From Lachnospiraceae bacterium (lineage in GTDB: Bacteria > Bacillota > Clostridia > Lachnospirales > Lachnospiraceae): 64,000 nt of DNA. Numbering within the stretch: the stretch's first letter is position 1; each line of letters begins with the position of its first letter. This document shows positions 9,935-55,360 of this stretch, in pieces. Location: contig JABZIV010000003.1 in NCBI GenBank assembly GCA_015258095.1, forward strand, positions 11,021-75,020. Direction: 5' to 3'. The position numbers were made by a program, and so were the translations under genes. The notes under the pieces were generated by a model. It was not told the origin of the DNA, ran no database searches, and saw only the letters and a list, made by a program, of their open reading frames with translations.

Positions 9935-10813
9935 TTAGCGATGGAGCAGCTCCTCCAGTTCTTTCTCACTGAAAAGATAACGCTTATTACAGAAATCACA
10001 ACGGACTTCCTGCGCTTTATGATCCTCAATCAACGACTGAATCTCTTTCTTCCCAAGCGAAATCAACGCTTTCTCTACCCGTTCTCTGCTGCAATTACAA
10101 TAATAGGATAAAGCTCTTTTCTCATGGATTTCCGGAGAAAAATCCCCCAATAAAAAAGTCAGCATACTCTCCGGCGTTTTTCCATCTTTTAACAAATCCG
10201 TTACGGAATGAACCGTTTTCAGCTTTTCTTCCAGTTTATCCAGAAGGCTTTCTTCCGCAAAAGGAAGCAATTGAATGATAAATCCGCCTGCCGCCTCTAC
10301 CGTATTTTCCTTATTGAGAAGGACTCCCAATCCCACGGAAGACGGAATCTGCTCACTAATACTGTAATACGCATTAATATCCTCGGCAATCTCTCCGCTG
10401 AGCAGTTCTGTCTGCCCGACATAAGGCTCGCCCAAACCGTTATCCCGGATGACGGAAAGAAATCCCTTTCCTACCGCACCGCCGACATTCAGATGACCGT
10501 CTTTCTTTGCAGGAAGAATTACATAAGGATTGCCACAACTTGCTTTGACCGTACCATGGGAATCCGCTGTTGCAAGCAGACTTTTCATGGGGCCGTCCCC
10601 TTTCACGGAAAGGGTAATCAGATCCTTCTCCCCTTTTAAGTCCATTCCCATCATCAGGGCGGCACTCATCAGCCGTCCAAGGGCTGCCGTTGCAATCGGA
10701 GAGGTATTATGTATGGCACGCTGCGCCTCTGCGGTATCCCTCGTCGTGCAAAGGAATGCCCGAATCTGTCCCTCTGCCGCTGTCGCTCTAATTAAATAAT
10801 CATTACTACTCAT
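9935..10813 (-). CDS. hslO: redox-regulated molecular chaperone Hsp33
   Basis: C-terminal CNCSRE...CDFCNKRY zinc centre. Start set at MSSNDYLIRA by alignment to HslO N-termini. Confidence 0.85.
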   Translation of the reverse strand: MSSNDYLIRATAAEGQIRAFLCTTRDTAEAQRAIHNTSPIATAALGRLMSAALMMGMDLKGEKDLITLSVKGDGPMKSLLATADSHGTVKASCGNPYVILPAKKDGHLNVGGAVGKGFLSVIRDNGLGEPYVGQTELLSGEIAEDINAYYSISEQIPSSVGLGVLLNKENTVEAAGGFIIQLLPFAEESLLDKLEEKLKTVHSVTDLLKDGKTPESMLTFLLGDFSPEIHEKRALSYYCNCSRERVEKALISLGKKEIQSLIEDHKAQEVRCDFCNKRYLFSEKELEELLHR

Positions 10814-11372
10814 TCTTTGCGAGTTCTCTCTCTCTTTCCTCATCTTTTCTCATGCAACATTTCTTATATTTCTTTCCTGAACCGCAAGGGCACAAATCAT
10901 TCGGATAAATCTTCTTGCTTTCTCTTCTCACTGTACCGGATTTTTTCTGCTCCTTATAGAGTTCTTTTCTTCTCTCTTCCGGTAAAATAGCGTCCCATTC
11001 GGGAAGGTCGTAAAGCCAGGATGCTTTGGCTTCCACCATATTGTAGTAGAGTTTCTCCGGGTCAATCTGAATCTTTACAACGGTATCCTCTTCCATGGTA
11101 TCGATGGGATTATGATACCCGGCAAGAGAATCGTCGATTCCGTCTAAAATGCCCACAAAAATAAACTCTTCAATGCCGAACTGCTCCGCAAGTTCCTTCA
11201 CCGTTCCTTCGTAGACCTTCTTCGGATCGGCAAGAACCTTCTCATAGAAGCCTTTTTCTAAAGAAAAGTACTTCTGCCAGAGCGCTTCCTGCTCATTCTT
11301 ATTCATCCCGTTCCCGTAAGCCGCATTTCTCCAATTTTCAAGTAAAGTTGCCATAGTATTCTCCATTCTCAT
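10806..11372 (-). CDS. SEC-C metal-binding motif protein (YecA-like)
   Basis: C-terminal CPCGSGKKYKKCC SEC-C motif in a 188-aa protein. Confidence 0.6.
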   Translation of the reverse strand: MRMENTMATLLENWRNAAYGNGMNKNEQEALWQKYFSLEKGFYEKVLADPKKVYEGTVKELAEQFGIEEFIFVGILDGIDDSLAGYHNPIDTMEEDTVVKIQIDPEKLYYNMVEAKASWLYDLPEWDAILPEERRKELYKEQKKSGTVRRESKKIYPNDLCPCGSGKKYKKCCMRKDEERERELAKNE

Positions 11373-11504: not shown

Positions 11505-12755
11505 TTACAATTCTTCCGCTTCTACCTTTTCTTTTCCTCCCTCTGTATGAAAGTGTTCAAAATCTTCATAAGATGCGGAGGAAAGCGGTAATCCTTTCTT
11601 CCGCAATCGTTCGTCCGTATATCTTCTAAGACTATGCAAAATCACTGCCCAGAGCGGCACACCGATAATCATTCCCACAAAACCGAACAATCCGCCGAAA
11701 AGCAGGATGGAAAAAAGTACCCAAAAGCTGGAAAGTCCCGTGGAATCCCCCAAAACCTTGGGACCGATAATATTTCCATCTATCTGCTGGATAATCAAAA
11801 TCGTAACGGCAAAATACAAACTTTGTATGGGGCTGGTCAGTAGAATCAGCAAAAAACAGGGAATCGCACCGATAAAAGGACCAAAGAACGGAATCACATT
11901 GGTTACTCCGACGATGACGGATACCAGAAGAGTATAGGGCATCTTCATCACACTCAGTACAAAGAAGGTCAATACCCCGATAATCGCACTGTCAATAATT
12001 TTCCCTAAGATAAAACCGCCAAAAACATGGTGTACGTATTGTAGTTCTTCAATAATTCTCTTCGCTTTTTTCTCTGAAAAAAGGGCAAAAAGAAGCTTTC
12101 TGAACTGTCTTCTCAACAGATCTTTCATATTGAGAAGATATACCATCACAATCAGACCAATCAGAATATTTTTGATTGCGGTGACCGTACTCCATATTCC
12201 ATTGGTGAAGACGGTGGCAATACTCTGTAAATGGGTGAAAATCGTCTGCGTACTCTCCGGCTTTCCGGTAAAAAAGCGGCTCACGTCATCATAAACATTT
12301 TCCACATAAGGTCTTGCTTCCGGGAAACGTTCCAGTAAAATCATCACATTGTTATAGGAGCGATTGATGGTATCCGGAAGACTGTTATACAAACTCATAA
12401 CGGACTTACTTAACTCCGGAATCAGCATCGAAACCAAACCGCTTACCAGGAACGACAAAAAAAGTAAACTTGCCACCGTGCCGGAAATCGCCAGAATCCG
12501 ACGATGCGCTTTCCTCTTGAAAAGAGAAAGAGAAACCCGACTGCACCAGTTCACCACGGTATTGTAGACCGGGCTCATGAGATAAGCCAAAACCGCACCA
12601 TAGATAATCGGCGTCAAAATCTGTACAAAAAATCCCAGAAAATTGGTCACAAAATAAAAGCGACTCGCCAGCACATAAACAAGAGTCACTAACGCCAGAA
12701 CCGAAAAGGCAGTCAGCCCCCACTTGATCTGTTCCTTCCACTCTTCTTTCTTCAT
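11505..12755 (-). CDS. AI-2E family transporter (PerM/YhhT-like)
   Basis: 416 aa, ~8 TM helices, family-typical length and pattern. Confidence 0.75.
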   Translation of the reverse strand: MKKEEWKEQIKWGLTAFSVLALVTLVYVLASRFYFVTNFLGFFVQILTPIIYGAVLAYLMSPVYNTVVNWCSRVSLSLFKRKAHRRILAISGTVASLLFLSFLVSGLVSMLIPELSKSVMSLYNSLPDTINRSYNNVMILLERFPEARPYVENVYDDVSRFFTGKPESTQTIFTHLQSIATVFTNGIWSTVTAIKNILIGLIVMVYLLNMKDLLRRQFRKLLFALFSEKKAKRIIEELQYVHHVFGGFILGKIIDSAIIGVLTFFVLSVMKMPYTLLVSVIVGVTNVIPFFGPFIGAIPCFLLILLTSPIQSLYFAVTILIIQQIDGNIIGPKVLGDSTGLSSFWVLFSILLFGGLFGFVGMIIGVPLWAVILHSLRRYTDERLRKKGLPLSSASYEDFEHFHTEGGKEKVEAEEL

Positions 12756-12862
12756 CTTCTATCCCTCTACCCCGAGTCTCCCATACGACTCTTGTCTTCT
12801 CCTCTTTCTTCCCGAAATATCTCTTTCGGAAAGTCCGCGCTTCTTGAAGAACAGTTCCTTTA

Positions 12863-12894
12863 ACAAAAAAGCTTCACATCATTCGACATGAAGC
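12863..12894 (-). terminator. intrinsic terminator (minus strand) ~115 nt upstream of the AI-2E transporter start
   Basis: Minus-strand hairpin GCUUCAU-GUCGAAUGA-UGUGAAGC followed by UUUUUUG (plus strand 12871-12894 preceded by AAAAAA at 12865-12870). Confidence 0.55.
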
Positions 12895-13133
12895 AGAATA
12901 ACAAAATCAACTTACCAAAACGCCGTACCACACGTTTGACTCCTAGCATTAAGCCAGGTGGGTAACCTCACGGATACCTCAAGGATCCTTAACCGCGGAC
13001 GGAAGGCATGCTATCTTTATCACAAATATTGGGAACCCGTATGTCATATTTGTAGGTTCAAATTGTGTGGACACGAACGCCCCAGTAAGTACGAAACGCA
13101 AGAAAAGAACGTCAGAATACTACACTTTCCTGC

Positions 13134-13162
13134 ATTATAGCAAAGCCAATTTAGGCTTGCAA
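13134..13162 (-). promoter_or_regulatory. sigma-A-like promoter TTGCAA-17-TATAAT on the minus strand, overlapping the 3' end of the thiamine diphosphokinase gene
   Basis: -10 TATAAT is the reverse complement of 13134-13139. -35 TTGCAA is at 13157-13162, with 17-nt spacing. Confidence 0.5.
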
Positions 13163-13972
13163 GGGGGCATAAGATAAAATCAGAATCCCGTTTTTTACAG
13201 ACACTTCCGCCTCTTCTCCTATAAACTCATTACTGACTCCGATCGGATTCGTACTTTGCAATTCCACATTGTTTATTCGATATAGAAGTCCTCTCTCCGA
13301 TACACCACAAGAAAGATCCGTGAAAGAAAAGACGGACAAATACCCGCGATACTCCTTTGTGAAAACTTTCTTTCCATTCCTTAAAGCTGTAAACAGCTGA
13401 TTCTTTCCATAGAGATAGCCCTCCGCCCCCTCTTCCGCCAAAAAAGCCAGGCTTTGCAAGGCAGCATAACTGTGGTCTATTCTTTCTCCTCCGAGAGCCG
13501 CCAGAATATGCACTTCACGGATACCTTTCGATAAGACAAGTTTCAATGCCGCCTGAAGGTCGGTATCATTTTTTACATGAGGTAGACGATAAAGCGGAAT
13601 GGAGGAACTCTTCCCCGCTACGTCCCCTTCCCTCTCCGCCTTCTCTATGAATCTTTCTCTCTCTCCTACTGTTTTCTTATCAAAAATAGAATACGACGTG
13701 CTTTCTTTCGCATTCAGAAAAGACGCATTTTTTCCGTTTTCTCTCCTTTCTCCGCTTTCTCCTTTTTCTTGATTTTCTTTCCCGTAAGAATCCATATCTC
13801 CTATGAGGAGATTCGGCGTAATCTGCAACGCTTCATAGTAGTGCATTCCACCGTCGATTGCCACAAGAAAATCTTCTTCTGTAAGAGAAAAAGGAAGCCC
13901 GTAAAAGCTTCCTGCCGCAATCAATACTGCACGTTTATACCTATCCTTCTCCCTTTCCCCGAATTCTTCCAT
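13151..13972 (-). CDS. thiN: thiamine diphosphokinase with a ~70-aa low-complexity charged insertion
   Basis: A GDMDS motif and a later YRLPHVKNDTDLQAALKL segment match thiamine pyrophosphokinase. An E/K/R/S-rich insert separates them. RBS GGAGGACTGCCT precedes the ATG. Confidence 0.65.
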   Translation of the reverse strand: MEEFGEREKDRYKRAVLIAAGSFYGLPFSLTEEDFLVAIDGGMHYYEALQITPNLLIGDMDSYGKENQEKGESGERRENGKNASFLNAKESTSYSIFDKKTVGERERFIEKAEREGDVAGKSSSIPLYRLPHVKNDTDLQAALKLVLSKGIREVHILAALGGERIDHSYAALQSLAFLAEEGAEGYLYGKNQLFTALRNGKKVFTKEYRGYLSVFSFTDLSCGVSERGLLYRINNVELQSTNPIGVSNEFIGEEAEVSVKNGILILSYAPLQA

Positions 13973-17547: not shown

Positions 17548-17637
17548 TGCGGATGACAGGACTTGAACCTGCACGGTCGCCCACCAGAACCTAAATCTGG
17601 CGCGTCTGCCAATTCCGCCACATCCGCAAAATCCCTT
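17548..17637 (-). tRNA. tRNA-Leu (anticodon TAG)
   Basis: Manual cloverleaf: acceptor stem GCGGATG/CATCCGC, anticodon loop TTTAGGT, long variable arm, T-loop GTTCAAGTC. Confidence 0.8.
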
Positions 17638-17650
17638 ATAAAAAAAGGAA

Positions 17651-17723
17651 TGAGACACGCGGGAATCGAACCCGCGACAACTTGATTAAAAGTCAAGTGC
17701 TCTACCGACTGAGCTAGTGTCTC
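17651..17723 (-). tRNA. tRNA-Lys (anticodon TTT)
   Basis: Acceptor stem GAGACAC/GTGTCTC, D-arm AGCTCAGTCGGTAGAGC, anticodon loop CTTTTAA, T-loop GGTTCGATTCC. Confidence 0.8.
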
Positions 17724-17727
17724 ATAA

Positions 17728-17799
17728 CAGGGCCAGTTGGATTCGAACCAACGACTGCAGGCGTCAAAGGCCTGTGCCTTACCGCTTGGCGATGGCCCT
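17728..17799 (-). tRNA. tRNA-Gln (anticodon TTG)
   Basis: Acceptor stem AGGGCCA/TGGCCCT, D-arm TCGCCAAGCGGTAAGGCA, anticodon loop CTTTGAC, T-loop GGTTCGAATCC. Confidence 0.8.
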
Positions 17800-17869
17800 A
17801 GGTCACACGAGTGAACGCACTGCGTTTCCCGTAAAGCGAGAATCAGGAAATAACCCTCTACATAAAAAG

Positions 17870-17944
17870 GGTGGCCACCGGGAGTCGAACCCGGGACCTC
17901 CAGAACCACAATCTGGCGCGATAACCAACTACGCTATGGCCACC
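17870..17944 (-). tRNA. tRNA-His (anticodon GTG) with encoded G-1
   Basis: G-1 plus acceptor stem GTGGCCA/TGGCCAC, anticodon loop TTGTGGT, T-loop GGTTCGACTCC. Confidence 0.8.
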
Positions 17945-18030
17945 ATGCTATTCTCGCAAGCGAAGAGTTCCTAGCCGTAACTCCCGCTTTAAACAAGAAG
18001 CCACACTTCGTTGTGTACCACTTGTTAAAA

Positions 18031-18104
<74 letters not shown>

Positions 18105-55232: not shown

Positions 55233-55249
55233 AAGTCCACAATTGAATA

Positions 55250-55351
55250 CCTTATTCAGAGACGGTGGAGCTACATAGGAGCGAAGAAGCCGCAGCAACC
55301 CCTTTAAAGGAAGGTGCTAACCTGAGCGAAGCAATTGTTTCGATCAATAAG
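55250..55351 (+). promoter_or_regulatory. SAM-I riboswitch (S-box) aptamer upstream of metK
   Basis: CTTATTCAGAGACGGTGGAG...GAAGCCGCAGCAACC...GGTGCTAACCTGAGCGAAG...ATCAATAAG matches the S-box conserved blocks. P1 pairs CTTATT with AATAAG. Location upstream of metK is classic. Confidence 0.75.
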
Positions 55352-55360
55352 ATTTGACGT

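Follow-up and report, generated by a model that had tools for sequence, protein, structure and literature searches.

6S RNA has been described in nearly all bacteria (PMC8414754), and a 6S RNA of another Lachnospiraceae genome is already found in Rfam (PMC5171806). The family is defined as a rod of ~200 nt, in which a central bubble separates the apical stem from a closing stem that is itself interrupted (PMC8876501). Its mode of action, mimicry of an open promoter with a release that is driven by synthesis of a short product RNA (pRNA), is established for the family (PMC8876501, PMC8414754, PMC12005410). In the 6S-1 type of Firmicutes, the 3' strand of the bubble contains a preformed hairpin of 5-7 bp and the opposite 5' strand is open; synthesis of the pRNA unwinds helix P2, which borders the bubble (PMC8876501). 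Bacillus subtilis 6S-1 is made with 11 extra nucleotides at its 5' end, which are removed by RNase J1 without effect on function, and its 3' ends are trimmed by exonucleases; 6S-2 of the same organism, which starts at its mature end, carries a putative terminator hairpin (PMC10578484). Escherichia coli 6S RNA is also processed from longer precursors.

Here, we analysed a stretch of 64,000 nucleotides from a Lachnospiraceae bacterium (hereafter the window), the minus strand of which carries a transcription unit of ~260 nt that a first-pass annotation had presented as an orphan RNA, matched to no known class, and as either a trans-acting sRNA or a novel attenuator. When the whole window was scanned with the models of Rfam 15 at their gathering thresholds, a match to 6S/SsrS (RF00013) was found at positions 13091-12908 of the minus strand, with 51.9 bits for a gathering score of 46.4. 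This match covers model positions 1-187 of 187, with an E-value of 1.8e-7 on 64 kb. In a permissive Rfam scan of positions 12700-13300 on both strands, riboswitches included, no family other than 6S was found at E<=1. The Rfam check that had been proposed for this interval thus returned 6S, and the orphan status has to be abandoned, as a hit to a known family is what the first-pass annotation itself had named as speaking against it. The proposal of a trans-acting sRNA holds in part: the RNA is discrete, non-coding, structured, independently transcribed and trans-acting, whereas it is no orphan, since RF00013 matches. We conclude that the interval is very probably the ssrS gene, encoding the 6S RNA of an Oribacterium-like Lachnospiraceae bacterium. 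The feature is real, and it is an ordinary 6S RNA gene of an already known family. The core, based on the RF00013 match and on covariation, extends over positions 12908-13091 (minus strand); its paired rod (13090-12910) measures 181 nt and is non-coding, in line with the ~200-nt rod of the 6S definition (PMC8876501). Moreover, folding of the 264-nt transcript gave a z-score of -2.6 relative to shuffled sequences.

The margin of the window's score over the gathering score is only 5.5 bits, and independent evidence was therefore sought. The transporter protein encoded downstream was used as a query against genomes, and the closest relatives were found in Oribacterium (Lachnospiraceae), at 75-79% protein identity. 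RF00013 was found at the same position in three of these loci (L001, L005 and L007) with 46.7-49.1 bits. The 6S RNAs of O. parvum (L002, 2669-2852; 42.9 bits) and O. asaccharolyticum (L003, 2706-2889; 44.2 bits) lie just under the gathering score of 46.4, so that threshold-based annotation would miss both, and a third ortholog, L083, is also just under it with 44.1 bits. L083 belongs to the most divergent copies, of which L094, L107 and L112 reached 55-56.4 bits and L098 is truncated. Across orthologs and divergent copies, the scores thus range from 42.9 to 56.4 bits, always over the full length of the model. An alignment and model specific to the genus recovers all copies, at 105-221 bits. 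When six intergenic regions were aligned, a near-invariant core of ~185 nt was observed, with divergence in the leader, in the 3' spacer and in the DNA further downstream.

To these were added the results of a metagenome scan with a pattern fixing TGACATACGGG and ACCCACCTGG, which gave 34 loci; these two stretches look invariant by construction, because the pattern fixes both. One locus, L091, was a chance match lying inside a coding sequence, with no 6S score, and was removed. The 27 distinct full-length copies kept, from Oribacterium genomes and metagenomes, form a shallow comparative set of ~6-8 independent lineages, mostly Oribacterium.

Without any input from Rfam, RNAalifold proposed a fold in which a closing stem is followed by a short internal helix, a bubble with a long open 5' strand and a hairpin on its 3' side, and finally an apical stem, with compensatory changes on both sides in 14 of 37 pairs. 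Because three divergent copies sit one column out of register in the plain MAFFT alignment from which it was derived, this structure lacked part of the apical region. It was replaced by an explicit 6S-style structure of 46 pairs in 7 helices, written by hand on the window sequence, and by a covariance-model realignment. On the plain MAFFT alignment, 92.2% of the cells are paired, and sliding the 3' partners by 1-3 columns lowers this value to 37-46%; changes on both sides affect 13 pairs (5-8 after sliding), a covariation score of 0.185 was obtained (0.05-0.085 after sliding), and none of 500 shuffles reached the observed values. After the covariance-model realignment, 93.9% of the cells are paired and 18 pairs have changed on both sides, compared to 4-7 when slid. 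The unfitted MAFFT result is the conservative one, since the realignment is fitted to the structure. The covariation analysis that had been suggested for the orthologous region thus speaks for a conserved fold, with 13-18 pairs changing on both sides and 92-94% of cells paired as against 37-46% after sliding. The strand assignment (minus) is secure; the structure contains 8 G-U pairs, and in six lineages the sense strand is 6-17 kcal/mol stabler than the antisense strand.

The closing stem (helix 1) is formed by a 5' strand, ACUUACUGGGGCGU-U-CG (13090-13074, minus strand), and a 3' strand, CGGCGUUUUGGUAAGU (12925-12910), and 6 of its 16 pairs have changed on both sides; in other clades, the register of the 4 outermost pairs differs. 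Bordering the central bubble, CCACAC (13070-13065) pairs with GUGUGG (12933-12928) to give helix P2. This complementarity, noticed in the first-pass annotation, is a real helix: all 6 of its pairs show changes on both sides, and 98% of the cells are paired in the covariance-model realignment. Helix 1 and helix P2 together constitute the interrupted closing stem of a 6S RNA.

The central bubble is large, with 26 nt in each strand. The 5' strand, AAUUUGAACCUACAAAUAUGACAUAC (13064-13039, minus strand), is unpaired in the consensus fold and was left open by RNAalifold (28 sequences); the single-sequence MFE structure pairs part of the bubble, the openness of which in vivo is therefore presumed. 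The 3' strand (12959-12934) contains a hairpin of 6 bp, CCUGGC-UUAAU-GCUAGG (12958-12942), which RNAalifold found independently. This hairpin is 100% paired in all copies and its loop is variable; 5 of its 6 pairs never vary, an invariance that is partly due to construction, because half of the hairpin lay within the search anchor. The hairpin and the GGG/CCC helix of the apical stem, both invariant, provide support from conservation, and not from covariation. A preformed hairpin in the 3' strand facing an open 5' strand is the arrangement of the Firmicutes 6S-1 type (PMC8876501), and the window RNA displays it.

The apical (internal) stem (13038-12960, minus strand; helices 3-6) is composed of GGG/CCC, CC/GG and UG-GAUA/UAUCCG, then a distal hairpin, CCUUCCG-UCCG-CGG-UU-AAGG. 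Pairing in these helices reaches 93-100%, and helices 4 and 5 contain pairs that have changed on both sides, as expected for the apical stem of a 6S RNA. In L083, L094 and L107, the distal helix has changed from CCUU/AAGG to CCGC/GCGG; this was seen by eye, the alignments being out of register here, and the helix of these three copies stays misaligned even after covariance-model realignment. The palindrome AAGGATCCTT, one of the inverted repeats picked up in the first reading, was found at 12990-12981, within the apical stem, and exists because CCUU/AAGG-type motifs serve two nested apical helices.

The rod of the window RNA, with its closing stem, helix P2, central bubble and apical stem, resembles that of B. 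subtilis 6S-1 (BsrA), and its preformed 3'-bubble hairpin of 6 bp falls within the 5-7 bp of this type. B. subtilis 6S-1 is made from a housekeeping promoter as a precursor with a dispensable 5' leader (PMC10578484), and the window RNA would be made in the same way. They differ in the length of this leader, which is 11 nt in B. subtilis and ~35 nt in the window, with a range of ~0 to 120 nt in the genus, and in the 3' part, as the rod of the window is followed by a spacer of ~15 nt and a separate hairpin-U6 terminator. Moreover, the collapse helix of B. subtilis 6S-1 is not clearly conserved among the relatives of the window RNA. Such a helix joins the distal part of the 5' bubble strand to the 3' strand of P2; in the clade of the window, it could be formed by CAUAC (13043-13039) with GUGUG (12933-12929), whereas the pairing is down to ~3 bp in L007, L083 and L094.

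The rod-and-bubble architecture is also that of E. coli 6S RNA (SsrS), the founding member of RF00013 (PMC8876501, PMC9670815), although the two RNAs cannot be aligned in sequence outside the model. In free E. coli 6S RNA, the 3' strand of the bubble is unstructured and a 9-bp hairpin appears only after pRNA synthesis (PMC8876501), while the hairpin of the window RNA is preformed. Processing differs as well, with RNase E/G in E. coli and RNase J in Firmicutes (PMC10578484). A further likeness is with Ms1 RNA of Actinobacteria, which has a rod-like, 6S-related structure and binds RNA polymerase (PMC9130861). However, Ms1 binds the core enzyme and not the holoenzyme, and it is confined to Actinobacteria; in the interval of the window, only RF00013 scored at E<=1.

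Given its family membership, the window RNA would be expected to bind the sigma-A holoenzyme, to be abundant and to accumulate in stationary phase. Its rod would mimic an open promoter and occupy the active-site cleft of the RNA polymerase holoenzyme that contains the housekeeping sigma factor (sigma-A), and this sequestration would damp housekeeping transcription upon nutrient depletion. When nutrients are resupplied, the polymerase would template a short pRNA on the 5' strand of the bubble, and the pRNA-6S hybrid would refold the RNA, so that the enzyme is released. Such an open-promoter mimic with pRNA-driven release is also the mechanism of E. coli 6S RNA (PMC8876501, PMC9670815).

The predicted pRNA, 5'-GUAGGUUCAAAUUG..., would start opposite C13052, with 5'-GUAGGUUC... 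as its 5' end, and run toward helix P2. A start at about nucleotide 40 is common to the prediction for the window RNA and to B. subtilis 6S-1, and C13052 is nucleotide 40 of the Rfam match. It is the last C of a CC(U)AC motif in the 5' strand of the bubble, which every lineage has, with AA(A) after it, and which was not part of the search anchors. The predicted pRNA GUAGGUUCAAAUUG displays features reported for pRNAs, namely an initial G, an adjacent A, GG at positions 4/5 and AA at positions 9/10 (PMC8414754). GGU(U)CAAA is common to this prediction and to GUUCGGUCAAAACU, the pRNA of B. subtilis 6S-1. An alternative start opposite C13056 (GUUCAAAUUGUGUG, which shares GUUC with B. subtilis) was considered and ranked below C13052, since the latter agrees with the hallmarks (GG 4/5, AA 9/10 and an adjacent A) and occurs in all lineages.

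Transcription of the 6S gene is predicted to start at ~13128-13126, from a sigma-A/sigma-70-type promoter (13162-13134, minus strand) identified by a consensus scan and by comparison with orthologs. This promoter, already indicated by the first-pass annotation, consists of a -35 box TTGCAA (13162-13157), a 17-nt spacer and a -10 box TATAAT (13139-13134), with 10 of 12 matches to the consensus; a TG extended -10 is also present. The -35 box overlaps the final codons of the upstream open reading frame (13151-13972, minus strand). TTGCAA-17-TATAAT is likewise found upstream of the RNA in L001, L002, L003, L005, L081, L095, L103 and L093, and the -35 box of L007 reads TTGCGA. It should be noted that a single match is not significant alone, either for promoters (2 found, 1.2 expected) or for terminators (4 found, 1.0 expected). 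However, the promoter and the terminator of the window recur at orthologous loci.

Between the predicted start and the rod lies a 5' leader of ~35 nt (13127-13092, minus strand), conserved neither in sequence nor in length; two alignments showed it to be divergent beside the conserved core. The distance from promoter to rod is ~42 nt in the window, L001, L002 and L005, which corresponds to a leader of ~35 nt, and ~10 nt in the L081 and L007 clades, where the leader is reduced to ~0-3 nt. It reaches ~120 nt in O. asaccharolyticum (L003). In strain ACB7 of this species, an insertion of ~80 nt was observed between the 6S promoter and the rod (L003, 2578-2705), which brings the leader to ~120 nt; it carries a direct repeat of 16 nt, GCGTGCGATATCTCGT, the copies of which lie at 2601 and 2640, and metagenome locus L111 has one copy of this repeat. 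The variability of the leader (~0 to 120 nt) fits a dispensable precursor segment.

At the 3' end, a terminator scan found an intrinsic terminator at 12894-12865 (minus strand), with a hairpin at 12894-12871 followed by U6 at 12870-12865. Its position and its U6 tract are as first described, while the stem has 10 pairs, G-U included, and not 7. The hairpin is kept in the window, L001, L002, L003, L005 and L093, where all of its changes are one-sided (G-U), and the L081 clade lacks it. In most orthologs, U5-U7 follows the closing stem directly, so that the closing stem and this U-run can themselves terminate transcription. The window has only U4 (12906-12903) after the closing stem, then the spacer of ~15 nt and the hairpin-U6, which makes the ~260 nt a primary transcript. 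The ~260-nt unit of the first-pass annotation therefore stands as the distance from promoter to terminator, whereas the conserved rod accounts for ~181-184 nt of it, and the functional RNA probably measures ~181-190 nt. The 5' leader, the 3' spacer and the terminator would probably be trimmed as in B. subtilis, by RNase J-type 5' maturation and 3' exonucleases, and the mature ends are placed here by prediction.

The gene upstream of the RNA encodes a thiamine pyrophosphokinase (TPK), as backed by Pfam PF04263 and PF04265, and the gene downstream, on the same strand, encodes an AI-2E family transporter (11505-12755, PF01594). The order DeoB-TadA-TPK-[RNA]-AI-2E-SEC-C-Hsp33 is conserved in Oribacterium. 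L007 lacks the upstream neighbour, and the RNA is present in L083, L094, L098, L107 and L112 with none of the window's neighbour genes; in L107, for example, it is flanked by a tRNA and by a cytidine deaminase-like gene. Since the most divergent copies lie beside unrelated genes, the RNA is a stand-alone gene and not the leader of the AI-2E transporter. The 6S gene is thus free-standing, with its own housekeeping-type promoter, its hairpin-U6 terminator and unrelated contexts elsewhere, and its neighbourhood is conserved only within the genus. In lactic acid bacteria, 6S synteny is likewise conserved, at the family level, and the flanking genes there, rarA and uspA, differ from those of the window (PMC8414754).

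Several observations were made on the neighbouring genes and on the rest of the window. The TPK (13151-13972, minus strand) is long, with 273 aa; its catalytic domain is split into two Pfam stretches around a charged insert rich in Glu, Lys and Arg, and its identity among Oribacterium is ~44-57%, compared to ~72-89% for its neighbours. The open reading frame of the SEC-C motif protein (10806-11372) overlaps the start of that of Hsp33 (9935-10843) by 38 nt (10806-10843, minus strand), and a similar overlap is found at orthologous loci (e.g., L001, 5045-5079). L083 and L107, two divergent Lachnospiraceae-like contigs, carry shortly downstream of 6S a homologous Ala/Glu-rich protein of ~220-270 aa (2112-2777 and 1994-2797, respectively); it has an N-terminal hydrophobic segment and hints at a different synteny in that lineage. 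Just downstream of Hsp33, L002 (5884-6241) and L003 (5836-6222) show sub-threshold matches to the cspA thermoregulator (36.8 and 25.8 bits for a gathering score of 78), which are probably the leader of a cold-shock gene or due to chance. Elsewhere in the window, we found a SAM riboswitch (S-box leader, RF00162) at 55249-55353 of the plus strand, with 69.7 bits for a gathering score of 44.4, and a cluster of five tRNA genes at 17548-18104 of the minus strand.

A rival reading, which takes up the attenuator of the first-pass annotation, is a cis-acting, riboswitch-like leader or attenuator that would use the terminator at 12894-12865 to control the AI-2E transporter. In its favour, the RNA is located directly upstream of the transporter gene and shares its strand, this linkage is kept throughout Oribacterium, a terminator separates the two, and no clear sigma-70-type promoter is seen in the spacer of 111-174 nt, in the window or in the orthologs. 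However, the full-length match assigns the RNA to a known trans-acting family, and the RNA does not accompany the transporter constantly: five loci (L083, L094, L098, L107 and L112) have the RNA without the transporter, the upstream neighbour is already lost in L007, and no 6S was found within 3 kb of the homologous transporters at the 15 non-Oribacterium loci scanned. Moreover, a non-conserved spacer sets the terminator hairpin apart from the rod, the hairpin is missing altogether in the L081 clade, and no conserved alternative pairing joins it to the structured core; the spacer between terminator and ATG is not conserved either. We thus consider a transporter leader to be very improbable, a reading that the changes of context have already largely refuted; a novel attenuator does not agree with an RNA that is found beside unrelated genes and is absent from the 15 non-Oribacterium transporter loci.

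An sRNA that acts in trans by base-pairing with mRNAs and resembles 6S by chance would likewise be discrete, structured and conserved, with a promoter and a terminator of its own, and the Rfam score exceeds the threshold by a small margin. The full-length RF00013 match recurs, however, in every lineage, and what covaries is the specific 6S rod with its large central bubble. Moreover, the best-conserved single-stranded stretch is the 5' strand of the bubble with its pRNA-start hallmarks, and not an accessible seed loop, and a near-continuous rod of ~181 nt is atypical for base-pairing sRNAs; we consider a fortuitous resemblance to be very improbable as well. Least plausible of all is a small protein. 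As first noted, the interval holds no convincing open reading frame: those starting with ATG encode 25-29 aa, and the longer ones, starting with GTG or TTG, are not conserved. Two of the latter exist in the window, a 40-aa TTG frame (12979-13101, minus strand) and a 60-aa GTG frame (12958-13140, plus strand), but no frame is open across the orthologs, where stop positions differ. Of the variable columns, 44/37/34 fall on the three codon positions, with no 3-base periodicity, and the helices of the RNA show compensatory changes.

The 6S gene is co-transcribed with the downstream gene ygfA in E. coli, and this ssrS-ygfA arrangement is a possible parallel to the conserved position of 6S upstream of the AI-2E transporter gene. 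In the window, the U-tract of the terminator ends 110 nt before the ATG of the transporter at 12755, in agreement with the ~115 nt estimated at first. A simple consensus scan of the 111-174-nt spacer before the ATG, in the window and the orthologs, gave only weak, non-conserved promoter matches. As no clear promoter was thus seen ahead of the ATG, partial read-through might contribute to expression of the transporter, and the Oribacterium 6S and AI-2E transporter genes may form a partly read-through unit, a suggestion that we regard as rather unlikely. Terminators vary in strength between species, from a closing stem with U4-U7 alone to one with a second hairpin. If read-through did occur, the transporter would be driven by the strong 6S promoter, at a level set by leakage of the terminator. 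Within this same rather unlikely reading, a leader varying from 0 to 120 nt could also tune the maturation or the decay of 6S RNA.

Taken as the 6S RNA gene of an Oribacterium-like bacterium, the locus should be labelled ssrS and leave the lists of candidate novel RNAs. The 6S RNAs of Oribacterium score right at the Rfam gathering threshold. Moreover, the variation of the leader within a single genus (~0, 35 and 120 nt) constitutes a natural experiment on 5' maturation. It is consistent with the finding in B. subtilis that 6S function needs no 5' maturation.
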